Shown here in pieces: positions 539-22,346 of a DNA stretch of 32,000 bases. The notes under the pieces are model-generated. The model was given only the letters and a program-made list of their open reading frames with translations. It made no database searches and was not told the origin of the DNA. The DNA comes from Candidatus Methylomirabilis limnetica. Its GTDB lineage: Bacteria; Methylomirabilota; Methylomirabilia; Methylomirabilales; Methylomirabilaceae. The DNA lies in the NCBI RefSeq assembly GCF_003044035.1, contig NZ_NVQC01000022.1, positions 300,001-332,000 of the forward strand, read 5' to 3'. Position numbers and translations under genes: made by a program. Position 1 is the first letter of the stretch. Every line of letters starts with the position of its first letter.

Positions 539-1408
539 TCAGCGGTCAGCTTTTAGCTTCTGAACTGATGGCTGGTTTATATACGGCGCTACTACCTGCT
601 GAACCTCTAGCAACTGGGTTAGAAGTTCCGGAAGTGCGTCAAGTTGGAGCATGTTGGGGCCGTCGCTGGGCGCATTGGCAGGGTCGGGATGGACCTCCAT
701 GAAGAGCCCGTCGACCCCTGCCGCTACAGCGGCTCGCGCAATGTAGGGAATAAATTGAGACTGCCCTGAAGAGGCATCGCCCGCACCGCCAGGTAGTTGC
801 AAGCTGTGGGTGACATCGAACAGGACGGGGTAGCCGAAGCTGCGCATGACCGGGAGCGAACGGATGTCTACCACCAGGTTGTTATAGCCGAAGCTGCTTC
901 CCCGTTCTGTCAGCACGATCGCCTCCGAGCCGGCCGATTTGAGCTTCTCGACGATATTACCTGCATCCCATGGTGACAGGAATTGTCCCTTCTTGACATT
1001 GACCGGCTTACCGGACCTCGCAGCAGCCAGGAGGAGGTCAGTCTGACGACACAAGAAGGCCGGGATCTGAAGAATATCCAGCACCTCCGCCGCAGCAGAT
1101 ACCTGATTCACGTCGTGGACATCGGAGATGACAGGGACGCCCAGCCTCGCCTTCACACGCTCCAGAATGCGAAGCCCCTCCTCCAAGCCCGGGCCGCGAA
1201 ATGAACGGCCTGACGACCGATTGGCCTTATCGTAGGAGGCCTTGAGGATGAAGGGAACCCGGCACGCTTCACATACTACCTTGATCGCCTCGCCAATCCT
1301 GAGCAGGTGATCCTCGCTCTCGATGACGCATGGACCAGCCACTAGGAGAAGCGGCGCTCCGCCACCAAGCGTAAGTTCGCCGATCCGTACCTGTTTTGTG
1401 AGTGCCAT
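539..1408 (-). CDS. kdsA: 2-dehydro-3-deoxyphosphooctonate aldolase (KDO-8-phosphate synthase)
   Basis: 289-aa ORF with family hallmarks [30 protein letters not shown] and [12 protein letters not shown]. The Cys in GPCVIES is the metal-dependent subclass signature. The ATG at 1408 has no purine-rich SD because the heptamer array abuts it. Confidence 0.95.
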
Positions 1409-1409
1409 T

Positions 1410-3136
<1,727 letters not shown>

Positions 3137-3170
3137 TTAGGATGTCATGGGTAGGGTGTAGGGTTACGTC

Positions 3171-3258
3171 GTCATTGCGAGCGACCAACGGGAGCGCGGC
3201 AATCTCATCGTCCTTGCAGTGCGAGATTGCTTCGGTCGCCACGCTCCCTCGCAATGAC
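3171..3258. repeat. Family A palindromic repeat, gene-less copy
   Basis: Forward arm GTCATTGCGAGCGACCAACGGGAGCGCGGCAATCTC (3171-3206), 16-nt spacer, inverted arm GAGATTGCTTCGGTCGCCACGCTCCCTCGCAATGAC (3223-3258). Each arm also has an internal ATTGC/GCAAT stem. It is flanked by GGGTA GGGTGTA GGGTTA (3149-3166) and ACCCTAG ACCCTTT (3297-3310). Confidence 0.9.
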
Positions 3259-3299
3259 GCCCGGGGGACCTTCTGGGCAATGACACTATTGCTCTCACC

Positions 3300-4340
3300 C
3301 TAGACCCTTTCTTTAAGCGCGTCCAGCAGTTCTTCCCGGCTGATGGTTGCCGTTCCAGCCCTCCCCACCACGACACCCGCCGCATGGTTGGCAATGACAG
3401 CCGCCTCTCGCATGGAAGCCCCCGATGCCATAGCCAGGGCAAGGACTGCTAAGACAGTATCCCCCGCCCCCGTGACATCATAGACCTCCTTAGCGACCGC
3501 CGGGATGTGCGTTACCCGCCCGTCCTCAAAGAGCGACATCCCCGCCTCTCCTCGAGTCACCAATATGGCCTTGACCTCGAGTTTCACAAGTAGCTCTCTC
3601 CCCGCAACGGCAAGGAGATCCTGTTGCCCCCATGCGGGAAGATGGGCGAAGGCCAAGGCCTCGTGATGGTTGGGGGTGATGACTGTGGCCCCTTTGTAGA
3701 GGGGGAAGTGATGTACTTTCGGGTCGACAACAACGATTTTCTGGCTACGTCGCGCGAGGGAGAGGATCTGTCGGGCGACCCGCTTGCCGATCACTCCCTT
3801 GGCGTAATCCGAGATGAGCACGGCATCGGCATCGGCAAGCCGCTCCGTTGCGAGCTCAAGTACCTGATCCGCCGCTTCCTTCGAGAGATCCGCCGTGCTC
3901 TCCCGGTCGAACCGGACGATCTGTTGGCTCCCCGCGACCACTCGGGTCTTGATGGTGGTAGGGCGAGTCCGGTCTACCACCACACCGTCGCTTTTCATCC
4001 CGGCAGCTTCAATCTGTTGGATCAGGCGTTCTCCTGGCGGATCGTTACCGACGACCCCTACCAAGGTCGCCATTCCGCCCAAGGAGTGGATGTTGGCGGC
4101 GACATTGCCCGCTCCCCCCAGGCGGAAACTTTCGTCCTTCACCTCCACCACTGGAACCGGGGCCTCCGGGGAGAGCCTCGACACGCTCCCCCAGATATAC
4201 TCGTCCACCATGATATCCCCGAGGACGAGGAGCTGCTTCTTAGGAAAACGGGCCAGAATCTGTTGATATCGAATAGCTACCTCCACTGACAGAGTCTTTC
4301 TAACCAATACCCCATGCGCCGGTGGCGCGCCCATGGGCAT
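3300..4340 (-). CDS. hldA: D-glycero-beta-D-manno-heptose-7-phosphate kinase (RfaE domain I / PfkB-type sugar kinase, monofunctional)
   Basis: Motifs LVLGDIMVDEYIWGSVSRLSPEAPVPVV (RfaE-I N-terminus) and DVTGAGDT (PfkB). No adenylyltransferase domain. The start is uncertain: the ATG at 4340 touches a repeat, and an internal GTG near 4286 (VEVAIRYQQ...) gives a more typical N-terminal length. Confidence 0.85.
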   Translation of the reverse strand: MPMGAPPAHGVLVRKTLSVEVAIRYQQILARFPKKQLLVLGDIMVDEYIWGSVSRLSPEAPVPVVEVKDESFRLGGAGNVAANIHSLGGMATLVGVVGNDPPGERLIQQIEAAGMKSDGVVVDRTRPTTIKTRVVAGSQQIVRFDRESTADLSKEAADQVLELATERLADADAVLISDYAKGVIGKRVARQILSLARRSQKIVVVDPKVHHFPLYKGATVITPNHHEALAFAHLPAWGQQDLLAVAGRELLVKLEVKAILVTRGEAGMSLFEDGRVTHIPAVAKEVYDVTGAGDTVLAVLALAMASGASMREAAVIANHAAGVVVGRAGTATISREELLDALKERV

Positions 4341-5509: not shown

Positions 5510-6913
5510 TCACATAGCATTTTTGTGGATGAAGCCCTTCCACAAGCTTAGGCAGAGGATTCTCAGATCGAAGAACAATGACCAGTTCTCAATATAGAAC
5601 AGGTCACACTCGATTCGTTTCTCGACTGAGGTATCACCCCTCCACCCGTTGACCTGAGCCCACCCAGTGAGGCCGGCTTTCACCTTATGTCGGAGCATAT
5701 AGCGAGGGATCTGCTTTCGAAACTCCTCTATAAAGACCGGCCGCTCCGGTCGGGGACCAACGAGGCTCATCTCCCCTTTCAGCACATTGAACAATTGCGG
5801 CAGCTCATCCAGCGAAGTTCTTCGGAGCAATGCGCCGATCACCGTCCGACGCCCATCACCGCGTGCGGCCCAGACCGGACCGGTGTCATCTTCTGCATCG
5901 GTCTGCATCGATCGGAACTTCAGCATCTGGAAGGTCCTACCGTCCAGGCCCATCCGTTCCTGGCGGTAGAGAACCGGACCAGGAGAGGTCAGCTTGATGA
6001 TAGCCGCGACAAGAAGCAGTAACGGCCCGGTGATCAGGAGGGCCACGCTCGCCAGTACGATATCTATCATCCTCTTGCCGACTAGGCTCCAGCCAAAAGT
6101 GGGCGAGTCCTGCAGGCTGATCAGGGGAAGACCGTCGAAATCCTCCACCCCTCCCCGTAAGGTCATGTACTGGTAGAGGTCCGGAACAACGTTGATGTCC
6201 GCGATCCCATCCTCCAGGCTTCTAAGGATTCCTTCCATCCGTCCGTAGGTCTCCAGCGGAATGGCGATAAAAATCCTATCGATCGACAGCTCGCCCACTA
6301 TCTCCCCTGCCTGCTCGTAGGTGCCAAGGGCCGTCAACCCCGCCACCTGTTCCCCCACCATCCTCGGATCGCCGACCAGCAACCCCATGATGTGAAGACC
6401 CAACTCCGGGCGCGCATGGATCCTCTCGATGACCTTCCGCGCCAACGCCCCCTCTCCGACAATCAGGATATGGCGGAGGTTATACCCCCTGCGCCTCATC
6501 AAACGAAGCCCCTCGCGGAAAACGCTCCTGATCAAGCTGACTGACAGGATGCTGAAGATCCAGAAGTAGAGAATCACCAACCGCGAGACCTCGAACGGCT
6601 TGAGAAAGAAGGTCGCCGCGACGAGAATCAAGACCGCGACGGTACAGGCCTTGGCGATATCCCTGACTTCGGCAAGGCGCGATGAGATTCGCCTCGGGCG
6701 ATACAACCCAAAAGCCTTAAAGGCGACACCCCAGACGATAACGATGAGGCCCAGCAGCAAGAGGTACGGGCGAGCGTCAGGGATACCACGGTAGACGGGA
6801 ACCAGGCCTAAATAAAAGCGGAAATAGTACGTACCGAGCCAACTGGCGCTGATCGCCAGCAGGTCTGCGAAAAGCATGAGACTTTCGAGGAACTGACTGT
6901 GGCGCTTCAGCAT
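5510..6913 (-). CDS. Polyprenyl-phosphate hexose-1-phosphate transferase (WbaP/CpsE-type initiating sugar transferase)
   Basis: N-terminal TM helices and a central Rossmann-like region. C-terminal bacterial sugar transferase domain: KRMIDIVLASVALLITGPLLL...LKFRSM...DELPQLFNVLKGEMSLVGPRP. The start is taken at the ATG at 6913 (MLKRHSQF), overlapping the upstream stop by 7 nt; the ORF-track start at 6940 is also possible. Confidence 0.9.
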   Translation of the reverse strand: MLKRHSQFLESLMLFADLLAISASWLGTYYFRFYLGLVPVYRGIPDARPYLLLLGLIVIVWGVAFKAFGLYRPRRISSRLAEVRDIAKACTVAVLILVAATFFLKPFEVSRLVILYFWIFSILSVSLIRSVFREGLRLMRRRGYNLRHILIVGEGALARKVIERIHARPELGLHIMGLLVGDPRMVGEQVAGLTALGTYEQAGEIVGELSIDRIFIAIPLETYGRMEGILRSLEDGIADINVVPDLYQYMTLRGGVEDFDGLPLISLQDSPTFGWSLVGKRMIDIVLASVALLITGPLLLLVAAIIKLTSPGPVLYRQERMGLDGRTFQMLKFRSMQTDAEDDTGPVWAARGDGRRTVIGALLRRTSLDELPQLFNVLKGEMSLVGPRPERPVFIEEFRKQIPRYMLRHKVKAGLTGWAQVNGWRGDTSVEKRIECDLFYIENWSLFFDLRILCLSLWKGFIHKNAM

Positions 6914-8130
6914 GATCGACGGCGTCCCCCACGCTTCCATTCCTCGAAGCGTTCAGCAATATACGTCGCGATCCGTTTTTCGAAAATCGAGCGATCGAAT
7001 GTAAGGGCATGCGTGCGAAGCGCCTCTGGATCGAACCGATCGGCTGATCGCTCGAACAGGTCGATAGCCTGGATCACCGCCTCAATGGTCTGCTCGTAGA
7101 AGAAAATGCCGGTGGGGGCCTCGGGTTTCGGGTTTCGGGTTTCGGGTTTCGGGTTCGCAGACGTTCTTGACTCCAAACTCGAAACTCGAAACTCGAAACT
7201 GTTTAACGGGACAACGGTTTCCGTCACCCCACCCTTGCCATACGCGATTACCGGCCGGCCGCTGGCCATGGCCTCAACCGGCAGGATACCAAAATCCTCC
7301 TCACCTGGAAATATCAGCGCGCGACAGCGGCTCAGAAGGTCGGCAACCTCGCTGTCCGGACGCCACCCCAGAAATTCGATGGTGGGACCGGCCATGCGCC
7401 GCAGTCGTTGGCTCTCCTGACCTTCACCCACGATCACCAGGTGTCGTCGCAGATGGTTGAAAGCCTCAATGGCGAGATCGATCCGCTTATACGGAGCCAT
7501 GGCTCCGGCCACCAGGTAGTAGTCGTCCGTCCGCTCGGCGATATGAAAGCGCGCGGTCTCGACCGGAGGATAGATCACCTCAGCCTCACGCCTGTAATGG
7601 CGTCGGATCCGATCCGCTACATGATGGGAGATGGCGACGAAGTGATCGATCCTGATGTTGACCGCGATATCCCACCGTCGCAAGCGTCCGGCGATAGCGC
7701 GTAACATAAGTCTAGACACCGGACCCATTCGGCCAGAGCCCACATAGGCATCCTGCATGTCCCAGATGTAGCGCATGGGGGTGTACACATACGCAATGTG
7801 AAGAGCCTCTGGCGGGGGTCTGACCCCCTTGGCCACGCAGTGGCTGCTCGACAGGATCAGATCGTACCCATCGAGTTTGAGCTGCTCGATGGCCCACGGA
7901 AATAGGGGCAGATAGTAGCGATAGCGGCTGGCGGCAAACGGCAACGCCTGGATAGCCGACGTCCGGATTCGCCGTTCTTCGATGGTCTTCGATGCGCTTC
8001 CCTTCACATGCAGCAGGGTGAAAATATCCGCTCCCGGAAAGAGCTCACAGAGCGCCTCCAGGCATCGCTCTCCCCCCCGCATCCCGGTCAGCCAATCGTG
8101 AATCAGCGCAACCTTTGCCTCATCCAACAT
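6907..8130 (-). CDS. Glycosyltransferase family 4, carrying an in-frame repeat-element insertion
   Basis: N-terminus VALIHDWLTGMRGGERCLE and the EX7E region EEDFGILPVEAMASGRPVIAYGKGGVTETV. An atypical segment of about 27-30 aa (PLNSFEFRVSSLESRTSANPKPETRNPKPEAP), encoded by the heptamer element at 7121-7201, precedes TGIFFYEQ. Confidence 0.9.
   Translation of the reverse strand: MLDEAKVALIHDWLTGMRGGERCLEALCELFPGADIFTLLHVKGSASKTIEERRIRTSAIQALPFAASRYRYYLPLFPWAIEQLKLDGYDLILSSSHCVAKGVRPPPEALHIAYVYTPMRYIWDMQDAYVGSGRMGPVSRLMLRAIAGRLRRWDIAVNIRIDHFVAISHHVADRIRRHYRREAEVIYPPVETARFHIAERTDDYYLVAGAMAPYKRIDLAIEAFNHLRRHLVIVGEGQESQRLRRMAGPTIEFLGWRPDSEVADLLSRCRALIFPGEEDFGILPVEAMASGRPVIAYGKGGVTETVVPLNSFEFRVSSLESRTSANPKPETRNPKPEAPTGIFFYEQTIEAVIQAIDLFERSADRFDPEALRTHALTFDRSIFEKRIATYIAERFEEWKRGGRRRSC
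7121..7201. repeat. Heptamer inverted-repeat element inside the GT4 CDS
   Basis: Counted directly: 5 x TCGGGTT (7121-7155), 19-nt spacer, about 3.7 x AAACTCG (7175-7200). The reverse complement of AAACTCG is CGAGTTT, versus CGGGTTT in the other arm, which gives one G:T position per unit. The 81-nt total is 27 codons with no stop. Confidence 0.92.
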
Positions 8131-9161: not shown

Positions 9162-10027
9162 GATGAGCTTCTCCCCGATGCCCGATCTTTCAGATAGGCT
9201 TCTAGCGCATCTCGCCAGTCGCTGAGGTCATCGAGATCAAGCGATCGCAGGTTCGCGTTATCCAGGACGGAATAGGCCGGTCGAGCGGCGCGGGCGGCAT
9301 AGGCGGCACTGGTCGTCTCGATGAGGTGGGGGCGCACACCCGATAGCTCTAAGATCGCTTGGGCGAATTGGTACCAGGAGCATTCGCCGTTGTTAGTGAT
9401 GTGATACAGCCCGTAGGCGCCAGTCTCGACCAATTGTCTGACCTTGCAGGCCAGCTCCTTGGCGCTTGTAGGGGTCACGATCTGGTCGCCCACCACACGG
9501 ATTTCGCGCCCATCCGCTGCCAGTCGGAGTATCGTTTCGACGAAATTTCCCGCCTTGCCGCGACTGCCAGCCATTCCATACAGCCCGCAGGTCCGGATGA
9601 GGTAATACCTCTCCAGGGCGGCTTGAACAAAGTATTCGCCGGCTAATTTCGAGGTGGCGTATGCGCTCAGCGGCCCAGGTCGATCAACTTCCCGGTACGG
9701 GCTGAGCTGCCTGCCGTCAAAGACATAATCGGTGCTGAAGTGGACGAGCGGCGCCCCGATCTCCTTGGCGACGATCGCAAGATCCCTCACCGCAGTCGCG
9801 TTCACGGCGAATGCCCGCTCGGCGTAATCTTCGCACTCATCGACCCGATGGTAGGCGGCAGTGTTCAAGATCAGATTTGGTCGGTGCTTGATAAGAGTTT
9901 CCCGTACCTGTACCGGGTTGGTCAACTCCAGGTCAGCATGCGTCAATGGGATGAGGTCATGATTACCAAAGGCCTGCCGCAGTTCGCTCCCCAACTGCCC
10001 GTCAGCACCGATCAGGAGGGTACGCAT
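9158..10027 (-). CDS. rfbD: dTDP-4-dehydrorhamnose reductase
   Basis: MRTLLIGADGQLGSEL start at the ATG at 10027. NTAAYHRVDECE, YATSKLAGE (YxxxK), and a length of about 289 aa typical of RfbD. The ORF-track N-terminal extension overlaps the upstream gene and is rejected. Confidence 0.9.
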   Translation of the reverse strand: MRTLLIGADGQLGSELRQAFGNHDLIPLTHADLELTNPVQVRETLIKHRPNLILNTAAYHRVDECEDYAERAFAVNATAVRDLAIVAKEIGAPLVHFSTDYVFDGRQLSPYREVDRPGPLSAYATSKLAGEYFVQAALERYYLIRTCGLYGMAGSRGKAGNFVETILRLAADGREIRVVGDQIVTPTSAKELACKVRQLVETGAYGLYHITNNGECSWYQFAQAILELSGVRPHLIETTSAAYAARAARPAYSVLDNANLRSLDLDDLSDWRDALEAYLKDRASGRSSS

Positions 10028-12234: not shown

Positions 12235-13444
12235 GGGACTGACTCATCAGCCGGCGAAGGGTCCGATAGCAGCTCCGCACAACCACTCGAACGCCAGGCG
12301 GCAGAAAGGCCAACCGACCTCTATCCGGAATAGAGGAAGAGAACCCTCCGTAATTCCCATTGTGATTCCTATATGAGTGAGAGACAACAGGAGGGATTTC
12401 GTACATCGGCTCCAGCTTCACCTCTGGAAGATCTTTTCCCTGCAGCAAACGTTCAACAAGCTCCAGGAACTGGCCCAATCCTTTCTCCAGCGGACGCTCT
12501 GCCATGTATTCCAGACCCGCCCGACTCATTCTTGCAGCCAATGAGGGTTCTCCGAGGATCCTCAAAAGCCCCTCAGCTAATGACTCCGGTGTCGGATCGC
12601 AAAGCAACACCGCGTCTTGTGGGAAATCATACAGGGTACTTTCCCGGAACATTTCCACGACAGGAAGACCTGACGCCATCATCTCAAAGGGAATTCGAGA
12701 AGGATTGGAGGAGCTGAGGCATAACCCCACAGTACACTTGTTATACAAACGATTGCATTCTTCCAGTCCTAGTAGGCCAAGGTGCTTATGCTCGAACCAC
12801 GGCCCACCGGGATCTTTTGAGCCGTAAAGATATATCGTCACATCAGGCATCAACTGTTTAACGATGCCCAGGGCTTCCAGGCCAATCTGGGTACAACGCC
12901 TGGTTTTTTCCGGCTGAAACACGAAGCATATCGCCCGTTCTCGCCGGATGTTCGGCAACTGTCGATAGATGCCGAGATCGGCACAGAAATCAAAGAAGGC
13001 CGCCTGTATATCGAAGCGCCTTTTCAGCCTCGCAGGAAGCCATCGTCCGATAGTAATCGGATACAACCCGTATCGAAATGAGTTTTCCGCCATCAGAAAT
13101 CCATCGCCCATGGGATTAAACCAGGCCTCGTAATCCTGAACGAAATACGCCTTAATGCATGGGAATGGCAGATCTCTCACGATCTTCGCGGAGTACCAGA
13201 TTGTTGCGAAAACGAGGTCAGCCGGATGCACGTTTGACCAACCGAGTCGCACATCGTCAAACTCAAGACCGAACATTCTTGCAATATCTTTTTTTAATGA
13301 TCTTTCGAATAAATATTGATGGTCCTCAAGATACAGCACACAACGGTGCCCCTGTTGTTGCAAGAAGGCCGCATGCTGGAGAATGGTGCGGTGCCCCCCA
13401 GATCCCTCAAGGAGGTTCGGAACGAGCCATGCGATAGTGGCCAT
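12224..13444 (-). CDS. Glycosyltransferase (GT4-fold, WsaF-like)
   Basis: N-terminus IAWLVPNLLEGSGGHRTILQHAAFL and a C-terminal sugar-donor region SNPSRIPFEMMASGLPVVE. Overlaps the downstream gene by 11 nt. Confidence 0.75.
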   Translation of the reverse strand: MATIAWLVPNLLEGSGGHRTILQHAAFLQQQGHRCVLYLEDHQYLFERSLKKDIARMFGLEFDDVRLGWSNVHPADLVFATIWYSAKIVRDLPFPCIKAYFVQDYEAWFNPMGDGFLMAENSFRYGLYPITIGRWLPARLKRRFDIQAAFFDFCADLGIYRQLPNIRRERAICFVFQPEKTRRCTQIGLEALGIVKQLMPDVTIYLYGSKDPGGPWFEHKHLGLLGLEECNRLYNKCTVGLCLSSSNPSRIPFEMMASGLPVVEMFRESTLYDFPQDAVLLCDPTPESLAEGLLRILGEPSLAARMSRAGLEYMAERPLEKGLGQFLELVERLLQGKDLPEVKLEPMYEIPPVVSHSYRNHNGNYGGFSSSIPDRGRLAFLPPGVRVVVRSCYRTLRRLMSQSHAS

Positions 13445-13586: not shown

Positions 13587-14918
13587 TTATGTGCCCGGTT
13601 GAGCAGACGGCCGGCATCGCCGCACTATAAGGTAGGTTACGAACAGTTGCACGGGAAGGAACAGGACCATAGCAATCCCAACTATGACTAATATCGCAAC
13701 TGGGTCGCGTATAAGGGCGCTCACCAATTGATGAGTATCCAAAGTTATCGAGCTCAGAATCACCTTATCGTCGGAGCTGATCCGGATTGCCTCGCTTCCA
13801 CTTGGACCCATCACGCGAAATCCTTGTGCGCCGCTCGACAACGTGAGCGTACCTGATTCATCAGCATAAATCTGCCCACCTTTGCCGCCATTAAAGACTA
13901 AGCCCTGCCCTTCTCGCTTCGTGTGGAGACGCATGGCACCGTGTTCGAATACCGGCTGGTCAAAGTCAATGCCGATCCCAGCCTCCTCGAACAAACCGTA
14001 AATAACCCGGCCGTCCTTAGCAAGGCTGTTATACACCACCATGGCAGCCTTCCACTGGCCCTTGCGGTTGGCGGAATCAGGCGAATCGGAATCCTCACTA
14101 CGAATCTCGATCGCCTGAGTATTCTGCTTTCCGAAACCAACCACCTGAACACCCGTCTTGGCCAATACGCCGGCATTCTCGCGCCCCCAGCCTTTCCAAT
14201 CCTTGCCGGCGTTTAGAACGTCTATCTCGAGACCGACAAGTTGGGCATCAAAATCGTTGGCATTGAAATGTGGCCGGTCCTTCGGCACGTACTCCTGCCA
14301 GTATAGGGGCCAAGACCGCGCCGAAAGGAACCCGCCCCACACTTTGCTGCCAGGCACAAAAGCGCCCGAGTCTCCCCAGATCGCCACGCCGTTAACATTG
14401 GGATTAAAGTTCCACACCTCACTCATGAGGTTCTGGTAGTGATTGTGCCTGCTATGATATTCGGTGGGCGAGCTAAACTTCGTTGAGCTATATTCCTTCG
14501 GGTTAGACTTCCAATCGGTAACCCTGGCGTCAGGAGTGATGACGTCAGAAATTGTGATATTCTGCCGCAGGCCCGTGCCAAGATGAGCGTACTGGCCCCA
14601 GATGCCTTCCAGCCGTGGATGGTGACCACGCACCAGGTTAATACCACCTCCATACCTGAAATCGAGAGTCCGGACATGCTGAGGAATTCTGACAGGAAAA
14701 GGGCCACGCGGAGCATCCTGCCCGATGACGATCAGCGGATTATTGCTCAGTTCGGCCTTGGAAATAATCGAGGCTGCCTTATCCCAGTTCTCTTTAGTTA
14801 GCTGAAAAGTTGTAAACCCGGGGAGCCCTGACCGTTGTAGTGCTTCTTGGGCCCAAGCAACCTTGGAAAAGATCGCGCATTGTGCCAACAAAAGGCCGAG
14901 ATAGAGCAATGTCTTCAT
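13587..14918 (-). CDS. Exported protein of unknown function with a C-terminal membrane anchor
   Basis: The ATG at 14918 gives the Sec signal MKTLLYLGLLLAQCAIFSKVAWA|QEA. The C-terminus is hydrophobic and followed by a basic patch (VAILVIVGIAMVLFLPVQLFVTYLIVRRCR). No domain recognised by eye. The ORF-track 5' extension reads through an IS remnant. Confidence 0.7.
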   Translation of the reverse strand: MKTLLYLGLLLAQCAIFSKVAWAQEALQRSGLPGFTTFQLTKENWDKAASIISKAELSNNPLIVIGQDAPRGPFPVRIPQHVRTLDFRYGGGINLVRGHHPRLEGIWGQYAHLGTGLRQNITISDVITPDARVTDWKSNPKEYSSTKFSSPTEYHSRHNHYQNLMSEVWNFNPNVNGVAIWGDSGAFVPGSKVWGGFLSARSWPLYWQEYVPKDRPHFNANDFDAQLVGLEIDVLNAGKDWKGWGRENAGVLAKTGVQVVGFGKQNTQAIEIRSEDSDSPDSANRKGQWKAAMVVYNSLAKDGRVIYGLFEEAGIGIDFDQPVFEHGAMRLHTKREGQGLVFNGGKGGQIYADESGTLTLSSGAQGFRVMGPSGSEAIRISSDDKVILSSITLDTHQLVSALIRDPVAILVIVGIAMVLFLPVQLFVTYLIVRRCRPSAQPGT

Positions 14919-14964
14919 GTGTGCCCTCACGCCACACCTCCGAATGCTTGTCTTACCCTTCATA

Positions 14965-15382
14965 GGGCAAGTGCAAGGACCTCCGTTACAGAGAAATCCT
15001 GAATCGATGGCAAGTGCAAGGACCTCCGTTACAGCATTTCCAATCTGCCACATAACGAGGCGGCAGAGAATAAACCACCTCTTGAAGTAAAGGTTGTTGC
15101 TGTGGCTCTCTACGGCGCAGTAAGTAAAATCAGCACGATCCAAGCGCTTGCCTTTGGCGCGCTCCGCCCATCGCTGCACGGTCGGCGCAGACACTCCGTA
15201 TTGGGTGGGCTGCGACCTCACGCAGCGATTGTCCAGCACGTACCCCTATGACCATTTCGCGCCGCTCTTGCTCAATCTTGTTTTTTTACTCATGTTGATC
15301 ACCTCCATGAAGTGTTTTCTACCATCTTACTGTAATGGAGGTGCTTGCACTTAGCTGTAACGGAGGTCCTTGCGCTTGCCCC
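14965..15382. mobile_element. Decayed mini-IS / MITE-like element with doubled inverted ends
   Basis: GGCAAGTGCAAGGACCTCCGTTACAG occurs at 14965-14991 and 15009-15034. Its reverse complement occurs at 15330-15352 (2 mismatches) and 15355-15382 (1 mismatch). The interior carries a frameshifted HTH gene. Confidence 0.7.
15100..15293 (-). pseudogene. Frameshifted N-terminal HTH domain of a transposase-like protein
   Basis: GGAGGT plus 7 nt precedes the ATG at 15293, giving MSKKTRLSKSGAKWS*. Shifting frame gives EQERREMVIGVRAGQSLREVAAH, and shifting back gives QYGVSAPTVQRWAERAKGKRLDRADF. Together these read as a typical LS.EQR..IV....G.S.REVA..GVS..TV.RW transposase HTH broken by two frameshifts. 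Confidence 0.6.
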
Positions 15383-15514: not shown

Positions 15515-16741
15515 TCAGGGGATCTCCTTTAGCCCCGAGAGTTCTCGCCTAGTCTCGTCAAGGCGTTCTTGAAGCTCCGCGATCCGCTGATCGCGGTTCT
15601 CGATTGCCTTCTCCATCTGCTGCATGGCCGTCCAGCGTTCCTCCACCATCTGCGCTTGCGCCGCAATGGTCTCGTCCCGCTCGCGGATCATAGCCTCCAT
15701 GCGCTGCATGGCCGTCCAGCGTTCTTCGATCAGGACCGTTTGAGCAGTGATAGTGTGCTCTCTGCCCAGGATGTGTTGCAAAGATAAAAACAGACCTGTG
15801 GGCAAACCCAGTTCGCCGGCCAAGCGCTGCAGATCCCACTCTGTATCGCTGGTGGTCGCCAAGTCCAGAAGTTGCGCCCCAGATACACCCGCCATCCGTT
15901 GCACCAGACAATACAGCGTCGGAAGCGGCAGAAAACTCTTATTGTGAAGCAGCGCGGCATACGCATTGCGTCCAGCTCTACTCGGATTGTCTGTTGGAGT
16001 AAGTCGCTGTGTAAGCGTCCAGATCGCCTTGGCATGCACAAAGGCATTCTCGCGGATGTGACACCAGATGTCGCTTTCCGAGATGGTATTCGAGCCGTGA
16101 ACCCTATAACTGAGCAGGTTTTCACGTACCCAGATTGGCGGACAATGCACCGTTGCCCTGAGAACCCAGTCCCAGTCGTGGGTGTATCTCAGCGCGGCGA
16201 ACTCACCCACGGAATCGTATAACGCTTTTGAAAAAAAGAGGTTGGAGCTGGTCATCGCCACGTTGCCCGCGAAAAACAGGCTCTCTAATGGTGTCTTTTG
16301 GCAACGTTGCTGAAGTATCCTATATTCATCGGCCCTCTCGTGTTCCGGCGCCGGGTGTCCTTCATCATTGATGAATTCCAGATCCGAAAATACCAATGCG
16401 CCGATTCCATGAACCTGTTGCGCTTCTTGAATCAGCACCTCAATCCGTCGACCGTGGAACAGATCATCGGAATTGAGGATGGCGATGTATTCGCCGGATG
16501 CCTGATGGATACCCACATTGATTGCCGCATGAGCACCGTTATTTTGTTGGGTCACAATCTTGACGCGCGGATCTCCCGCGTAGCGTGTCTGCAGCAGATC
16601 TACACTATTGTCCTGGCTGCCGTCATCGACGACAATAACCTCCAGATCCCTGTACGTCTGGGACAGACAACTGTCAACCGCAGCCGCCACGTACTTCTCG
16701 TGGTTATACGACGGAATCACTACGGTAACTAATGTGTTCAT
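15515..16741 (-). CDS. Glycosyltransferase family 2 with a C-terminal coiled coil
   Basis: VTVVIPSYNHEKYVAAAVDSCLSQTYRDLEVIVVDDGSQDNS. The C-terminal tail of about 90 aa contains a duplicated 28-aa unit (EERWTAMQ.ME..I..RD..IA), encoded by an 84-nt repeat with cores at 15619-15640 and 15703-15724. Confidence 0.9.
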   Translation of the reverse strand: MNTLVTVVIPSYNHEKYVAAAVDSCLSQTYRDLEVIVVDDGSQDNSVDLLQTRYAGDPRVKIVTQQNNGAHAAINVGIHQASGEYIAILNSDDLFHGRRIEVLIQEAQQVHGIGALVFSDLEFINDEGHPAPEHERADEYRILQQRCQKTPLESLFFAGNVAMTSSNLFFSKALYDSVGEFAALRYTHDWDWVLRATVHCPPIWVRENLLSYRVHGSNTISESDIWCHIRENAFVHAKAIWTLTQRLTPTDNPSRAGRNAYAALLHNKSFLPLPTLYCLVQRMAGVSGAQLLDLATTSDTEWDLQRLAGELGLPTGLFLSLQHILGREHTITAQTVLIEERWTAMQRMEAMIRERDETIAAQAQMVEERWTAMQQMEKAIENRDQRIAELQERLDETRRELSGLKEIP

Positions 16742-16753
16742 ATTCCTTGTCAG

Positions 16754-17924
16754 CTAGTGTAGTGTTGCATAATTAGCTTGACTTATATCTCCGCATCGGT
16801 TAGGGTGGCTAAGGAGGTGAGACCGATGCGGACCGCGTGTGACATTGTACTGACGGACACGGAACGAAGCACGTTGCAACGCTGGTCGCGTGGTCGTAGT
16901 ACCCCGATCCGAGTGGTGCTCCGATCGCGCCTGGTGCTGTTGGCGGCACAGGGTCTGATGAACAAAGACATCGCCACCGCCGTGGGAACGTCGCGCCAGA
17001 GTGTCGGGCTGTGGCGGTCGCGATTTGCCGCGCAGCGACTGGCGGGCATCGAGCAGGATGCGCCTCGGGGAGGGCGCCGGCCGACCCGTCGGGATCAGGT
17101 GGCTCGGCTGATTCTGGAGCGGACCACCCAGACGGTGCCGTGCAACGCCACCCACTGGAGCGTACGCACCCTGGGGACGGCATTGGGAATCTCGCCCACG
17201 ATGGTACATCGTGTCTGGAAGGCCCACGGGCTCAAACCCCATCTGAGCCGGACGTTCAAGCTCAGCAATGATCCGAGCTTCGTGGAGAAACTTCTCGATA
17301 TCGTCGGGCTGTATCTGAATCCGCCAGAGCACGCCTTGGTGCTGTGTGCCGATGAGAAGAGTCAGATCCAAGCGCTCGATCGCACCCAGCCGGGTCTGCC
17401 GCTGAAGAAGGGGCGGTGCGGGACGTACACCCACGACTACAAGCGGAACGGGACAACCACCCTGTTCGCCGCCCTGGAACTGGCGGAGGGGCGACTGATC
17501 GGATCCTGCATGCCCCGGCATCGCCATCAGGAGTGGATCACCTTCCTCACACGCATCGATACGCAGACCCCGGCGGACCTCGATCTGCATCTGATCATTG
17601 ACAATTATGCGACCCACAAACACCCGGCTGTGCAGCGGTGGCTGCAACGACACCCGCGCTTCCATATGCATTTTACTCCGACGGCCAGTTCCTGGTTGAA
17701 TTTGATCGAGCGATGGTTTCGGGAGCTCACGGATAAGCGTATTCGCCGTGGCACCTTCCACAGCGAGCAGCACCTGATTCAAGCGATCATGGATTACATG
17801 ACCGAACATAATCAGCACCCCAAATCATTTGCCTGGACGGCCAAGGCCGAGACCATCCTCGCGAAAGTCGCCCGCGCCAGAGCTGTCTTGGATAAGTCAG
17901 CATCAGCGTGAAACACTACACTAG
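16754..17924 (+). mobile_element. IS630-family insertion sequence, apparently intact
   Basis: Terminal inverted repeats CTAGTGTAGTGTT (16754-16766) and AACACTACACTAG (17912-17924). TA dinucleotides sit at both junctions (16755-16756 and 17922-17923), consistent with IS630 TA target duplication. Single transposase ORF; length about 1.17 kb. Confidence 0.88.
16826..17911 (+). CDS. IS630-family DDE transposase
   Basis: AGGAGG at 16812-16817, then the ATG at 16826. An N-terminal HTH region is followed by a DDE_3-type core: CADEKSQIQALDR ... LIIDNYATHKH ... SWLNLIERWFRELT. Confidence 0.92.
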   Translation: MRTACDIVLTDTERSTLQRWSRGRSTPIRVVLRSRLVLLAAQGLMNKDIATAVGTSRQSVGLWRSRFAAQRLAGIEQDAPRGGRRPTRRDQVARLILERTTQTVPCNATHWSVRTLGTALGISPTMVHRVWKAHGLKPHLSRTFKLSNDPSFVEKLLDIVGLYLNPPEHALVLCADEKSQIQALDRTQPGLPLKKGRCGTYTHDYKRNGTTTLFAALELAEGRLIGSCMPRHRHQEWITFLTRIDTQTPADLDLHLIIDNYATHKHPAVQRWLQRHPRFHMHFTPTASSWLNLIERWFRELTDKRIRRGTFHSEQHLIQAIMDYMTEHNQHPKSFAWTAKAETILAKVARARAVLDKSASA

Positions 17925-18374: not shown

Positions 18375-21300
18375 TTACTCGAATACAGCTTCCCGCTCTA
18401 TATGATTCATAACTAAACGATAGGCGTTTTCATGATCCGATAAAACGCTGTCCATGCGAAAACGTTCCGCTGCCTCTTTTACGGCACTCCTCGCATATTG
18501 ATATCGCAAATGGTCAGACGCGAAGTCAGCAATGATTGAAGCGCTTTCGGAAATAGGTACTTTCCAGTCCTGCAAGGTAATCAACGCGCCGGCGACGCCA
18601 TTGCGGGTGGTAAGCATGGCGCGAATCTCACCGATATCACTGGCAACGACAGGCTTACCGGCACACAAGCACTCGATAATGGATAGTGGGACGCACTCGC
18701 CACGAAACTGAGACGGAAGAAAGCCTAAGTCCGACATCGCAAAGTAGTCCACAGGGTTGTCCGCAAAGCCTAGAAGATGAACAAAATCAGGTACCCCCTC
18801 TGATCGCAAGGCGGAAGCTACGGGTCCGTCGCCAAGCAACAACAAATGTATTGCCTTTCCAGAGAGTTCCCGAGCAGCACAAACGATCTTTATCGCCTCA
18901 TACCATCCTTTTTCAGAAATTGCGCGACTCGCCAAGCAGAGCACAAAAGCGTCGCTGGAAATGCCCAATGTCGATCGATCGATGACGCGGATGGCCGTCG
19001 GCTCCAGGCCGTTGCCAATTTTGACGAATCTTTCGGGGCGGTAATATCCTTTTTTCTTAAATACTGTAAGGTTCTTGTCAGCGATGTAGCACCACAGATC
19101 CACGCTGTTGACGATCGCCCCCAAAGTGTGCTCGATCTCACTATCGCTGAGAATCTCATACATTCCATGCATAGTCGCTATATGTCCTGTCCGGTATTTC
19201 ATGTGTACGATATTTGTCGCGAAAAAGTGCTCCGCCGATGCGTGATGAGAATGTATCAGTTCGATGCCAAAAGCTCTGATCAATTGATCGATCGATCCGA
19301 TCCTCGAATTACACTCGAAAACAGGAATATCCGAATATAGCAATTGTCGGATCTTGAGGTTAAGAGACTCACGATTATAGTTGAAGAACGTAACCGCATA
19401 TCCTCTCTTTTTTAGTCCGTTCGCCAGCCTAATTGGGACAATTTCACCCCCGCCGGTAGAGAACGAATAACAAGCCATCAAGATATTGGGCCGGCGCGCT
19501 GACTTGCACGCGAGTACACGTTCCTTGTCATAAAGCTCGATCGGTAACGGTTGTCCCGGCCGGCTAAAGGTGTCTTGCCAAAATCTCTCTACAAATGCGT
19601 GGTGACGTCGAATGACATCATTAGAGACATTGTAAAGTTCAACAATTGTTCTCGCTACGGCTTCATGCTCTTTATAGTAAGTTTCGTTCCGATAGGTGCC
19701 GGCTGAGGAGTTAGCGTTATGAAATCTATAGTAATTCACAGTAGAATTGGTAAATGCGATTTTCCCGCCTCGTATGATATGAAGATAAAATATCCAGTCG
19801 CCGCAAATCTTCAGGTTTCGCCAGTTCTCGTCGTCCAGTAAGGCGCAACTGACCGGGCGGCGAAATACGGCGCTACTAACATTTGGAATGGTGTTCTTGA
19901 GCCCAAGAGCGGTTGCCACTTCGCTGTGGGAAGTCACAATATAGTCGGATTGCCATTTATCTTTGTCGACATCGCACACATAATTATGAAAAGTAAAAGC
20001 AGTGGCATTTCCGTAACCATCCACAAATACCGACCGAGCATAAGCGAGTTGAACAGTCTCGTCTGCGAACAACGGTACAAGTTTTTCCAAGAACGTCGTC
20101 TCGCAAAAATCGTCACTTTCGGCGATCCAAACGAGATCCCCGTCGGCCATTTCGAAGCCTTTTTCCCATTGGTCAAATACGCGGCCGCTATTTTTATCGT
20201 TAAAGCACAATGTGGTGTTGTCACCGTAGGTAATCGCGTAATCCCTTAGTATCTCGCGGCTCCAGTCCGAGGAGCTGTCATCGAGTAATATGACATCGAA
20301 ATTCCTGTAGGTTTGATTATAGATGGACTCGAGCCGCTGTTTAAGAAATCCGGCATGGTTATAATTAGGCACGATCACCGTTACCTTGGGGCGGAACGAG
20401 GCGTGGGAATTTTCGAAGCGCTCGCTCGGATTAAAGTTATCCGGAAAGCAGCTTCGTCCCCTCGTTGAGGTCGTTTCAGGATATTTTAAAGACGACGAAC
20501 TCTCTGCCTCAGCGAAAACCTCGACTATTTCATTCTCAACCTTAAAGAGTGGTTGCTCACGGCGTTGCAAAACTCTTGAGAGAAATGCGACAGCGCCCAC
20601 AACCTTTCGAGCAGCCAGGTTCCAATAATAGCGGAAGGCTCGAAGAGGCCTCGTGAAAGTCCATGATCTAGACCCGTACACTTGAGCCAGTTCCTGTTTC
20701 AGGAACAGGATCTGCCCGTCGCGATCGGCCACCGCCTGGGTGAGGTCGGTGATCTGCCCGTCACGATCGGCCACCGCCTGGGTGAGGTCGGTGATCTGCC
20801 CGTCACGATCGGCCACCGCCTGGGTGAGGTCGGTGATCTGCCCGTCACGATCGGCCATCAGTGCGCCAATCGCCTGCTCTAGCTCTTGAATCTGCCGATG
20901 TTGGACAAGCAGACGCGCCTGCACCTTGGCCTCCCGCTCCTGGGCGAGGGCCGCCGCGGTTTCGGCCGAGACGGCGCGAGACTCTTGTTGCTCGGCCTGC
21001 GCAAGAGGCGATTGGGGGAGCACCAGAGTCTTCTCGCGCTCCCGCGCCTGCTGTTGGGCGTGCGCGATCAGCTTCAGATAGGGCGTAGCAGACTCTCTCT
21101 TCGGCTTATGAGTGTGGGTGGCATCTTCGTAGATCTTCTCAAGCGTGGCAACATGGGCCTCCATTGAATAGAGCGTATCTGGCCGGATGTTCCTGCGCAT
21201 CATGTCCAACAGCTCCGGCTTATCCAAGATTTCCTGGAGCCGTTGGGCCAGATTCTCTGCATCCCCAGCCCGAAAGGTCAGGCCGGCCTTCCCGATTCGC

Positions 21301-22346
21301 TCCGAGAGGGCGCCACGGTCCGAGACGAGGGTCGGCAGCCCCAACTGTAACGCCTCGTCAATGGTAAACGAATAGGATTCACTGGTAATGGAAGGGAAGA
21401 CAGCGAGGTCAAGGTCGAACGCCTGCAGGTCGGCCGACTGATAGGCGCCATGGAATTGAACTGAGAGGCCGCGCGCGAGATCGCGAAGTCGTTCCCCGTA
21501 TGCCTGTTCCAGGGCTGTTCCGATCAGATGGACCTGAACGGCAGATGGATCGTCCAGACGATGCAGCGCCTCCAGGAGCAGGTGCGTACCTTTATGGTAC
21601 AGGAAATAACCCCAATGCCCGATCTGCAGCGGCCGATTTGGGAACGCCGACAGCCCCGTTCGCCTCTCCTGCGCCATGAGGGTCTGGAGACTTCCATGCG
21701 GGAGAACAGTCAAACGGTTCTCCGGAAGCTCAAGCAGCTTAAGCAGCAATGAACGGTGAGCCTCTGACGGTACGATGAGGGCCGAGGCCAGCGCAAGTTC
21801 CTCCCCTATCATCTGTTGACGTAATGTCAGCGCAGCAGCGACCTCCAGATCCGTCTGCCATTGAGTTCGCTCGACACAGTGCAGACATGGTGCGGTCAAG
21901 AGGGGTTCTTTGCAAAACGACCCCTCTCGGTGGATCCGATGGATTCGTGGGCAGGAGGTCCACACATCGTGCAGCGTCACCACCACCGGAATACTTAGGT
22001 CCGCGCAGATCGCCACCAGGTTATTGGTTAATTGGTGCCAGTGATGCACATGAACGATATCCGGCCGACACGAAGCCAGGGCACTTCGCAACGCTTGCTC
22101 CACCTCCGGATCGTATCCGTCCATCCATCCATAATCTCGTCCTTCCGCACGGTAATACCGCGTCACATCGAGACCGTCCTGCTCTGTCGTGACGGTCGTC
22201 GCCTTCGCGGTCGACTGTCCCGTCCCGGCGAACACCGCCACCGTATGACCGCGAGATCGCAACTGCGCACAGACAGCCTCGCAGTAGCGCTCCGTGCCTG
22301 CGATCGACTCTGGTGGAAAGCCGTGAACGATCTGGAGGATTCTCAT
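18375..22346 (-). CDS. Multidomain glycosyltransferase: N-terminal GT4, coiled coil with tandem 14-aa repeats, GT2, C-terminal GT4-like domain
   Basis: 1323-aa ORF. N-terminus MRILQIVHGFPPESIAGTERY with a Cys cluster CPRIH...C...C..C. Coiled coil with 4 x DRDGQI(T/L)..., followed by SRSWTFTRPLR. GT2 block KVTVIVPNYNHAGFLKQRLESIYNQTYRNFDVILLDDSSSD. C-terminal domain ILMACYSFSTGGGEIVPIRLANGL...GECVPLSIIECLCAGKPVVASDIGEI. Confidence 0.92.
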   Translation of the reverse strand: MRILQIVHGFPPESIAGTERYCEAVCAQLRSRGHTVAVFAGTGQSTAKATTVTTEQDGLDVTRYYRAEGRDYGWMDGYDPEVEQALRSALASCRPDIVHVHHWHQLTNNLVAICADLSIPVVVTLHDVWTSCPRIHRIHREGSFCKEPLLTAPCLHCVERTQWQTDLEVAAALTLRQQMIGEELALASALIVPSEAHRSLLLKLLELPENRLTVLPHGSLQTLMAQERRTGLSAFPNRPLQIGHWGYFLYHKGTHLLLEALHRLDDPSAVQVHLIGTALEQAYGERLRDLARGLSVQFHGAYQSADLQAFDLDLAVFPSITSESYSFTIDEALQLGLPTLVSDRGALSERIGKAGLTFRAGDAENLAQRLQEILDKPELLDMMRRNIRPDTLYSMEAHVATLEKIYEDATHTHKPKRESATPYLKLIAHAQQQAREREKTLVLPQSPLAQAEQQESRAVSAETAAALAQEREAKVQARLLVQHRQIQELEQAIGALMADRDGQITDLTQAVADRDGQITDLTQAVADRDGQITDLTQAVADRDGQILFLKQELAQVYGSRSWTFTRPLRAFRYYWNLAARKVVGAVAFLSRVLQRREQPLFKVENEIVEVFAEAESSSSLKYPETTSTRGRSCFPDNFNPSERFENSHASFRPKVTVIVPNYNHAGFLKQRLESIYNQTYRNFDVILLDDSSSDWSREILRDYAITYGDNTTLCFNDKNSGRVFDQWEKGFEMADGDLVWIAESDDFCETTFLEKLVPLFADETVQLAYARSVFVDGYGNATAFTFHNYVCDVDKDKWQSDYIVTSHSEVATALGLKNTIPNVSSAVFRRPVSCALLDDENWRNLKICGDWIFYLHIIRGGKIAFTNSTVNYYRFHNANSSAGTYRNETYYKEHEAVARTIVELYNVSNDVIRRHHAFVERFWQDTFSRPGQPLPIELYDKERVLACKSARRPNILMACYSFSTGGGEIVPIRLANGLKKRGYAVTFFNYNRESLNLKIRQLLYSDIPVFECNSRIGSIDQLIRAFGIELIHSHHASAEHFFATNIVHMKYRTGHIATMHGMYEILSDSEIEHTLGAIVNSVDLWCYIADKNLTVFKKKGYYRPERFVKIGNGLEPTAIRVIDRSTLGISSDAFVLCLASRAISEKGWYEAIKIVCAARELSGKAIHLLLLGDGPVASALRSEGVPDFVHLLGFADNPVDYFAMSDLGFLPSQFRGECVPLSIIECLCAGKPVVASDIGEIRAMLTTRNGVAGALITLQDWKVPISESASIIADFASDHLRYQYARSAVKEAAERFRMDSVLSDHENAYRLVMNHIEREAVFE
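20709..20858. repeat. 42-bp tandem repeat, about 3.6 copies, inside the giant GT coiled coil
   Basis: Units at 20709-20750, 20751-20792 and 20793-20834, plus a partial unit at 20835-20858. Units 2 and 3 are identical, and unit 1 differs at one base (gtcGcg versus gtcAcg). The repeat encodes ADRDGQITDLTQAV iterated. Confidence 0.97.

Follow-up and report, generated by a model that had tools for sequence, protein, structure and literature searches.

The 32,000-nt stretch of DNA analyzed here (positions 300,001 to 332,000 of contig NZ_NVQC01000022.1 from the methane-oxidizing bacterium Candidatus Methylomirabilis limnetica, referred to below as the window) contains a pair of inverted heptanucleotide arrays that lies in frame within the catalytic domain of a GT4 glycosyltransferase. 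Our analysis suggests that the arrays are a resident pair of heptamer repeats prone to slippage, which a permissive loop of the enzyme tolerates and which reading-frame and stop-codon constraints filter, and that they are members of a genome-wide class of G3-4N3-4 heptamers in Methylomirabilis, represented here in a WbaZ-like enzyme of a polysaccharide cluster; we regard this two-part reading as the best explanation and give it about an even chance of being correct. Heptamer repeats are over-represented in some bacteria, with origin and role unexplained, and have been thought to be excluded from genes. Here the class is abundant in the phylum NC10 and follows a very strict polarity (G-rich arrays follow stop codons and C-rich arrays precede start codons), and one pair has been kept in frame inside the catalytic domain of an enzyme across a whole genus. 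Selection for the reading frame makes the dynamics of the repeats legible as 21-nt steps, stop-free units and discrete allele types, and the GT4 locus can be seen as a natural reporter of the expansion, homogenization and movement between strains of heptamer arrays. What is most valuable in the finding is the strict rule of polarity, together with the way in which the loop behaves like a cassette. The gene and the parts of the element are as follows.

6907–8130, minus strand: GT4 glycosyltransferase gene, GT-B fold, WbaZ-like, 407 aa (open reading frame (ORF), Pfam, AlphaFold2, Foldseek)
7117–7209, minus strand: segment encoding the loop, 93 nt or 31 codons (PLNSFEFRVSSLESRTSANPKPETRNPKPEA), situated between TETVV and PTGIFF (alignment of 120 orthologues)
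7121–7155, minus strand: 3' arm in the sense of the gene, (AACCCGA)5, equal to (TCGGGTT)5 on the plus strand; encodes NPKPETRNPKPE (Tandem Repeats Finder (TRF), 5.0 copies, 100% matches)
7156–7174, minus strand: 19-nt spacer forming the hairpin loop, CGCAGACGTTCTTGACTCC on the plus strand (direct sequence)
7175–7200, minus strand: 5' arm in the sense of the gene, about 3.7 units of CGAGTTT plus one degenerate unit, AAACTCG on the plus strand; encodes FEFRVSS

TRF calls the 5' arm as (ACTCGAA) in 4.4 copies at 7170–7200 with 95% matches, so that the array extends to 7170. The two arms form an inverted repeat (I1) of 30 nt per arm with 83% complementarity, in which the 5' arm departs from a perfect complement by one transition per unit; the resulting mismatch is G.T on the plus strand and A.C on the mRNA strand. 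A preliminary description of this DNA, made from the sequence alone, had reported five TCGGGTT units, a 19-nt spacer and about 3.7 AAACTCG units in inverted arms with one G:T position per unit, and the peptide that it gave is the one in the ORF translation; all of this is borne out. It had measured the insert as 81 nt or 27 codons without a stop, and the element is indeed in frame and stop-free, but the orthologue alignment places the boundaries at 93 nt and 31 codons. A two-unit pattern with at most 2 mismatches occurs 13 times in the window, against 0.22 in dinucleotide shuffles. As RNA the plus (antisense) strand reaches a folding energy of -51.5 kcal/mol (z -5.75), against -36.3 (z -4.4) for the sense strand, the antisense fold being the stronger because its mismatches are G.T rather than A.C; the DNA folds of the element reach -22.8 and -17.9. 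On the template (plus) strand the 3' arm presents five G3 tracts with 4-nt spacers, in line with the G3-tract array described earlier, and fits a G3N4 x5 quadruplex motif; read as (GGGTTTC)5, with 100% matches, it is a 7-nt unit with a G3-4 tract. The array is not an assembly artefact, since the identical 93-nt segment is found on an independent Joint Genome Institute metagenome contig (L210; loci and proteins are denoted below by L and P numbers) and the GT4 protein of the window recurs identically on 4 contigs. Comparison of the element with Rfam gave nothing at the gathering thresholds, only sub-threshold look-alikes of miRNA hairpins, and a search for promoter-like or terminator-like sites at the element found none. 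A 104-aa antisense ORF (MPVGASGFGFRVSGFGF..., 7106–7420, plus strand) spans the array; it owes its existence solely to a repeat unit that has no stop in any frame, and in all likelihood it is spurious.

The protein encoded by the host gene is 100% identical to a glycosyltransferase of Ca. Methylomirabilis limnetica (phylum NC10) and matches the Pfam families Glycos_transf_1 (2.4e-20) and Glyco_transf_4 (1.3e-06). Its AlphaFold2 model (mean predicted local distance difference test score, pLDDT, 87) has the GT-B fold with two Rossmann-like domains, for which Foldseek returns MshA, PimA, PglA, BshA and WaaG (1e-15 to 1e-17); the nearest PDB sequence is WbaZ-1 (2f9f, 5e-20). The EX7E motif corresponds to E278-DFGILPV-E286, with E286 invariant and E278 at least 90% conserved among 55 homologues, and stands 22 aa N-terminal of the loop, which in the window ORF has the context ...GGVTETVVPLNSFEFRVSSLESRTSANPKPETRNPKPEAPTGIFFYEQ... 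Structure prediction had been proposed as a check on whether the insert is a surface loop. In the AlphaFold model the pLDDT falls below 50 at residues 313–335, whereas the adjoining strands are modelled with confidence, and the loop is accordingly predicted to be disordered, exposed at the surface and permissive.

The loop site in orthologous genes

In the alignment of 120 orthologues the loop segment is hypervariable. Minimal homologues from other phyla read ETV(I)-DGK-TG(I)FF and have a 3-aa turn at this site, in agreement with the earlier placement of the insert just after the EX7E motif where GT4 enzymes normally have a short turn; the loop of the window is about 29 aa longer than the minimal DGK-type turn. 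Among the matches listed, mostly from other phyla, indels concentrate at this site in numerous phyla, where 0–36 aa are added. Spans of about 1,700 nt that tblastn gave at 11 loci in other phyla were considered as large insertions and rejected as an artefact, each being one ordinary high-scoring segment pair of about 1,130 nt.

DNA was available for eleven orthologous loci besides the window, of which ten were usable, the eleventh (L209) being an error-ridden contig. Period-7 tracts occupy the loop site in 9 of the 10 usable NC10 orthologues, and in L209 likewise. Their units differ: (GTTTCGA)/(AACCCGA) in the window, L210, L082 and L212; (GTTCAAC)/(TCAGCCT) in L081, L084 and L211; (GTTCCAA)/(AACCCGG) in L087, where three blocks encode 65 aa in total; (GTGCGAT) alone, in only 2–3 units, in L086; and (CCCCTCA)4 alone in L088. 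L085 combines the array of L086 with an interrupting 60-nt block that bears a palindrome and preserves the frame. The units of the 5' arm can be aligned in register across orthologues as GTTYNRN, which points to one old resident array evolving, at least in part, in place rather than to a dispersed copy. In all NC10 orthologues the loop comprises at least 10 aa and is repeat-derived; no empty site was found within the genus among the NC10 orthologues examined. The period-7 signal at the loop is also present in two groundwater metagenome-assembled genomes labelled Nitrospinota and Nitrospirae. The flank pattern GGNGGNGTGACGGARACNGT proved too unspecific in a metagenome search, in which a single orthologue (L158, on the same contig as L083) was among 120 stretches.

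The element itself has been found nowhere else in the DNA searched. Its spacer GGAGTCAAGRRCGTC was absent from other sites in about 1 Mb of DNA searched and occurs only at the GT4 site (L082, L083, L158, L210, L212), and when the GT4 element is compared with an intergenic element of L082 the arms align and the spacers do not. A search for the peptide (NPKPETR)5(SGFGFRV)5 returned only short ORFs without Pfam domains, which are miscalled arrays, and no second real gene. In the DNA searched, neither the spacer nor the full element occurs at unrelated sites. This bears on the suggestion that a repeat family had colonized the coding sequence in the manner of Rickettsia palindromic elements (RPEs), which are dispersed copies of defined 100–150-bp families inserted in many different genes. 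The GT4 element resembles an RPE in being in-frame palindromic repeat DNA that is translated as an extra surface segment tolerated by the fold, but its arms are tandem heptamers, it lies at one orthologous site occupied in nearly all relatives examined, and we found no second full copy. With the site occupied in 9 of the 10 usable orthologues, the units in register and the spacer unique to the site, the analogy to RPE colonization is not supported. The observation made in the preliminary description is confirmed, and its interpretation is partly supported, though not on this point nor on that of an on/off switch, discussed next.

Length steps and the reading frame

Of 91 close orthologues, 43 have a loop of 31 aa and 10 have one of 24 aa, with 17, 10 and 45 aa also present; in 57 of the 91 its length is congruent to 3 modulo 7, i.e. 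it changes in 7-aa steps that correspond to three heptamers or 21 nt. The repeat number varies between strains, as seen in this series of 10, 17, 24, 31 and 45 aa and in L082, which has exactly three units fewer than the window in one arm (2 versus 5). The unit is not divisible by 3, and a change by one unit abolishes the full product: frame +1 runs into a stop after 13 aa and frame +2 after 10 aa, with loss of the last 69 aa. We envisage that the element, with its order of degenerate former G-rich arm, spacer and C-rich arm on the sense strand, changes its copy number by replication slippage, that alleles with one unit gained or lost would be selected out for lack of these 69 residues, and that nothing would persist but units free of stops and copy-number changes that amount to three units net, the encoded peptide being a passenger. 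Units would be homogenized within arrays by concerted evolution.

The best 120 homologues include only two that are out of frame at the array, P0092 and P0095. The latter (locus L209) was considered as an OFF allele and rejected; it is probably an assembly error, because neighbouring genes on the contig are also fragmented. As truncated alleles could hide inside clusters, 79 further members of the 90% clusters were listed, and among them P0295 is the only clear frameshift, with a tail that is the +1 reading of PTGVFFYEQ. Thus about 2 of roughly 195 sequences (about 1%; P0092 and P0295) are frameshifted in the array, and OFF alleles make up no sizeable share of those sampled. It appears that slippage yields frameshifts, which get purged.

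These data allow us to weigh the possibility that the gene is a contingency locus, in which slipped-strand mispairing by one or two units would toggle the transferase and vary a surface polysaccharide, e.g. for phage evasion, by analogy to neuO or lgt/lic. Several features agree with it: a unit length that is not divisible by 3, a frameshift that costs the last 69 aa, a surface-polysaccharide transferase in a Wzm/Wzt-type cluster, strains that differ in copy number, and the existence of the frameshifted alleles P0295 and P0092; cycles of loss and regain would also produce homogenized units at constant length. The phase-variable capsule O-acetyltransferase gene neuO of E. coli K1, with its (AAGACTC)n array, is the one well-studied heptanucleotide switch located in an ORF and a close parallel, as both have a translated heptanucleotide array within the ORF of a surface-polysaccharide enzyme, both yield the full-length protein only with the frame kept (in neuO, when the count is divisible by 3), and in both the repeat encodes a heptad peptide. 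However, the neuO array is located at the 5' end, comprises 3–53 units (most often 20) and is out of frame in 65.6% of 64 complete genomes, about two thirds (PMC13001214), whereas the GT4 gene has two arrays of 4–5 units at 75–83% of the ORF (969–1014 nt from its start) with about 1% of alleles OFF. The third apparent frameshift, in P0095, is the probable assembly error mentioned above, and the same class of repeats adjoins housekeeping genes, e.g. pyrG and kdsA. We therefore consider a contingency locus unlikely. The earlier statement that one unit more or less shifts the frame stands, as such a change truncates the last 69 aa; the on/off switch derived from it does not, given the rarity of frameshifts and the 4–5 units available, and true phase variation has in our estimate a low probability. 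The case calls for caution: an intragenic repeat with a non-triplet unit need not be a phase-variation switch.

The genome-wide heptamer class

In a 115-kb sample of NC10 DNA, arrays with 3 or more units number 22 for period 7 and 0 for periods 6 and 8–12, and most of the period-7 units are G3-4N3-4 or its complement. Their placement follows a strict rule. On the sense strand all GGG arrays (5/5) begin between -1 and 19 nt past the upstream stop codon, one of them overlapping it, and all CCC arrays (8/8) end 0–33 nt ahead of the next start codon; the arrays tabulated for polarity are those at 1408–1513 in the window, 11800–11869 in L082, 12580 and 14774 in L086, 12596–17809 in L088 and 12625–17381 in L211. 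All 13 of these sister arrays are non-coding and lie between co-directional ORFs near a stop or start codon, unlike the intra-ORF GT4 element, which nevertheless has the same order: a 5' arm resembling a G arm (its G-runs broken by one transition per unit), followed by a C-rich 3' arm. Two intergenic elements are present in the window.

1408–1513, minus strand: intergenic sister element between pyrG and kdsA, with (AGGGTNN)5 from the pyrG stop codon, a spacer, and (CCCTAAA)8 up to the kdsA ATG (TRF, sequence, Pfam of neighbours)
3149–3312, minus strand: intergenic element between pfkB and pyrG, with GGGT-type heptamer arms (3149–3165 and 3298–3312) around a nested palindrome (sequence)

The pyrG/kdsA element folds as RNA at -45.7 (z -2.9). 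It contains the (GGGTTTA)8.4 array at 1410–1468, whose unit has 6 of 7 bases in common with that of the GT4 element. A GGGTTT core had been proposed to be common to the GT4 element and the arrays at 1410 and 3149; this holds for the array at 1410, but the short arms at 3149 have only GGGT in common with the GT4 unit. All the same, the assignment of the GT4 and intergenic arrays to one heptamer-repeat family can be kept in the sense that they belong to the same class. The genic unit GGGTTTC has no stop codon in any of the six frames, while the intergenic GGGTTTA yields TAG or TAA, and thus only the GGGTTTC-type unit could survive in the gene. In L082, L209 and L088 the units of the GT4 arrays are the same as the intergenic units of their own genome. 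As for the pyrG/kdsA element, the (CCCTAAA)8 array abuts the kdsA ATG in the window and leaves no space for a Shine-Dalgarno sequence. The GGGTTTA array at 1410–1468 is identical to the plant-type telomere repeat TTTAGGG and contains a stop codon in either orientation. Its orthologue in L082 is (CCCGAAA)4, a switch of the unit throughout the array between strains with 86% identical flanks. Within the 3' end of kdsA of L082, 22 nt ahead of the stop codon, there is a second intra-ORF heptamer array, (ATCAGCC)3 at 12710–12731.

The heptamer arms of the pfkB/pyrG element read GGGTAGGGTGTAGGGTT ... ACCCTAGACCCTTTC and enclose a palindrome at 3170–3259 with 37-nt arms (3170–3206 and 3223–3259, CGTCATTGCGAGCG...) of 76% complementarity. 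Together with the in-frame block in the L085 loop, this suggests that the centres of heptamer elements may take in other palindromic repeats. A search of the window with the L085 palindrome, and of the window and the loci with a back-translated guess at the type-F element, gave no matches, and hence neither is shown to be a dispersed repeat.

We found no paper on such heptamer repeats in Methylomirabilis. The closest described counterparts are the heptamers of Xanthomonas (GGGAATC) and Nostoc (GGGGAYT, known as STRR, short tandemly repeated repetitive sequences), in which heptamers are the only over-represented repeats; they lie near the stop codon in sense or ahead of the start codon in antisense, form 70–75 convergent pairs per genome and G-quadruplexes in vitro, and have no known function (PMC4692102, Rehm et al. 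2015). The NC10 arrays resemble them in the 7-nt unit with a G3-4 tract, in the strong over-representation of period 7 alone (in NC10 as judged from the 115-kb sample), in their location between co-directional genes, with the G-rich unit in sense after the stop and in antisense before the start, in the frequency of convergent pairs that could form stem-loops, and in the differences in length and sequence of arrays at orthologous positions in relatives. They differ in that several units coexist instead of one dominant unit per genome; furthermore, the Xanthomonas and Nostoc heptamers are under-represented in ORFs, whereas the NC10 array of the GT4 gene is in frame in a catalytic domain genus-wide. 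Repetitive extragenic palindromic (REP) sequences and bacterial interspersed mosaic elements (BIMEs) of enterobacteria are likewise hairpin-forming repeats between co-transcribed genes, and NC10 arrays such as that at 1408–1513 resemble them; REPs, however, are neither tandem heptamers nor translated. Metagenomes, and likewise the cryptophyte Baffinella frigidus, commonly contain long (TCGGGTT)n/(AACCCGA)n arrays (proteins P0121–P0240), which are routinely miscalled as hypothetical proteins of 65–123 aa made of SGFGFRV or NPKPETR repeats.

Uncoupling of loop types from the flanks, and the surrounding cluster

Unexpectedly, the loop type does not follow the phylogeny of the flanks, and the discrepancy reaches the very edges of the element. 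Between the window and L081 the flanks are 92% identical at the nucleotide level and the loops 47%; between the window and L085 the values are 91% and 29%. For the 44 loops of 31 aa the correlation between loop identity and flank identity is 0.03, and mapping of loop types on the flank tree requires 41 changes, with a minimum of 7 and a value of 65 for shuffled labels. A distant clade whose flanks are about 64% identical carries the same loop types. The gene also contains a mosaic block at nt 360–600 (about 7531–7771 in the window), in which the window is 62–78% identical to L210 and L082, the rest being 90–100% identical; this block may be taken as evidence of recombination within the gene. 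Recombination between co-occurring strains is the most economical reading of the uncoupling between loop and flanks. In terms of a resident repeat pair, whole arrays would pass between strains by recombination, and discrete loop types would endure while the flanks homogenize, because arrays of unlike type would be unable to recombine; the regions flanking an imported tract would erode over time, with unlike arrays acting as non-recombining islands.

Four observations are at odds with a resident repeat whose peptide is a passenger. First, the loops of the window and L212 agree at 80 of 93 nt (86%), without gaps and with the spacer kept, although their flanks are 64% identical and third codon positions 43%, and the conserved tract starts and stops exactly at the edges of the element; for a pure passenger, conservation below that of synonymous sites would be expected. 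Second, the flanks of P0094 and P0244 agree at all but 8 of 381 residues (98% identity), yet their loops, of equal length, are unrelated. Third, a length of 31 aa is the mode in loop types that are unrelated, a hint of a shared template or of some constraint on length. Fourth, the match between genic and intergenic units in L082, L209 and L088 hints at ectopic conversion or a unit-specific process.

Taken at face value, these observations would fit an autonomous DNA module of about 80 nt that is replaced or re-templated at its own boundaries, with the loop as a site-specific cassette-exchange locus served either by ectopic or inter-strain gene conversion, set off by hairpin- and quadruplex-prone arrays, or by a unit-specific machinery. 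If true, this would account for the same loop types across synonymously saturated flanks, for unrelated types in 98%-identical alleles, for the common 93-nt length and for the agreement of genic with intergenic units in one and the same genome. We regard module and exchange route, taken jointly, as distinctly improbable. Another possibility is that the loop is a landing site for small palindromic or heptamer elements that arrive with precision, by RPE- or REP-like insertion or by ectopic conversion from other arrays. It draws on the uncoupling of loop type from flank phylogeny (the correlation of 0.03 and the 41 type changes), on the recurrence of types in clades only about 64% identical, on the 98%-identical alleles with unrelated loops, on the composition of the L085 loop (the array of L086 and, added to it, a palindrome-bearing block of 60 nt), on the palindrome nested between heptamer arms at 3149–3312 and on the match of units to intergenic arrays of the same genome. 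On the other hand, the element is always found at exactly one site of the GT4 gene and has no target-site duplications or terminal repeats. The spacer unique to this site in the 1 Mb of DNA searched, the unrelated spacer of the intergenic element with the same arms, and the restriction of the peptide unit to miscalled small ORFs, with no second real gene, likewise argue against it, and ordinary homologous recombination between strains is already visible in the mosaic at nt 360–600. A mobile or templated cassette is thus doubtful.

The conservation between the window and L212 may alternatively indicate an element that acts at the nucleotide level, as a hairpin or template G-quadruplex involved in transcription pausing or attenuation, in RNA processing or stability, or as a recombination hotspot. 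This would be consistent with the strength of the folds relative to shuffles (z -5.75 and -4.4), with the 86% conservation of this type-A element, confined to the element while third codon positions of the flanks stand at 43%, with a G-then-C polarity the same as that of the intercistronic elements, with the match of the template strand to the G3N4 x5 motif, and with the formation of G-quadruplexes in vitro by related heptamers (PMC4692102). However, the hairpin potential is weak or absent in relatives (-17.9, -15.6 and -1.0 kcal/mol in L081, L084 and L088, respectively, and only 33 nt in L086), and G3 tracts are present at the site in some orthologues and absent from others; close relatives such as these four lack both features at the site. 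Hairpin and G3 tracts, being present only in some orthologues, are no general requirement of the gene. In addition, the mismatches weaken the hairpin of the mRNA strand, and neither an Rfam family nor a promoter- or terminator-like site was matched by the element. We consider it rather unlikely that a role of this kind explains the element; with a resident, frame-filtered repeat pair, any effect on expression through the hairpin or the template-strand quadruplex would be a side effect and not the reason for its presence.

The cluster in which the GT4 gene resides also contains Wzm/Wzt, GT2 glycosyltransferases, RmlD and an epimerase, and constitutes a polysaccharide operon. The gene immediately downstream is the following.

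5510–6940, minus strand: polyprenyl-phosphate sugar-phosphate transferase gene, Bac_transf plus CoA_binding_3 (Pfam 1.3e-68)

The GT4 gene and this gene for the initiating sugar-phosphate transferase overlap by 34 nt (6907–6940), and the overlap, which is also kept in L081, L084, L086 and L211, suggests that the two may be translationally coupled. Small genes and insertions in the cluster differ from strain to strain: L086 has a GIY-YIG mini-ORF (9681–9962) immediately upstream of the GT4 gene, L082 an insertion sequence (rve) upstream (3000–4210), and L088 a gene for a four-helix-bundle protein similar to 23S_rRNA_IVP/bAvd between pyrG and kdsA (16457–16855), with a (CCCCAAA) array at its 3' end. 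Two further tandem repeats are present in the window. A 25-nt repeat (2.1 copies, 85% matches) is located at 15326–15377, in the intergenic region between the ORFs 13587–15239 and 15515–16741. A 42-nt repeat (3.5 copies, 99% matches) at 20709–20857 encodes in-frame 14-aa repeats in a 1,323-aa multi-domain transferase (18375–22346, minus strand); as they lie between its GT4 and GT2 domains, they may form a linker of variable length.

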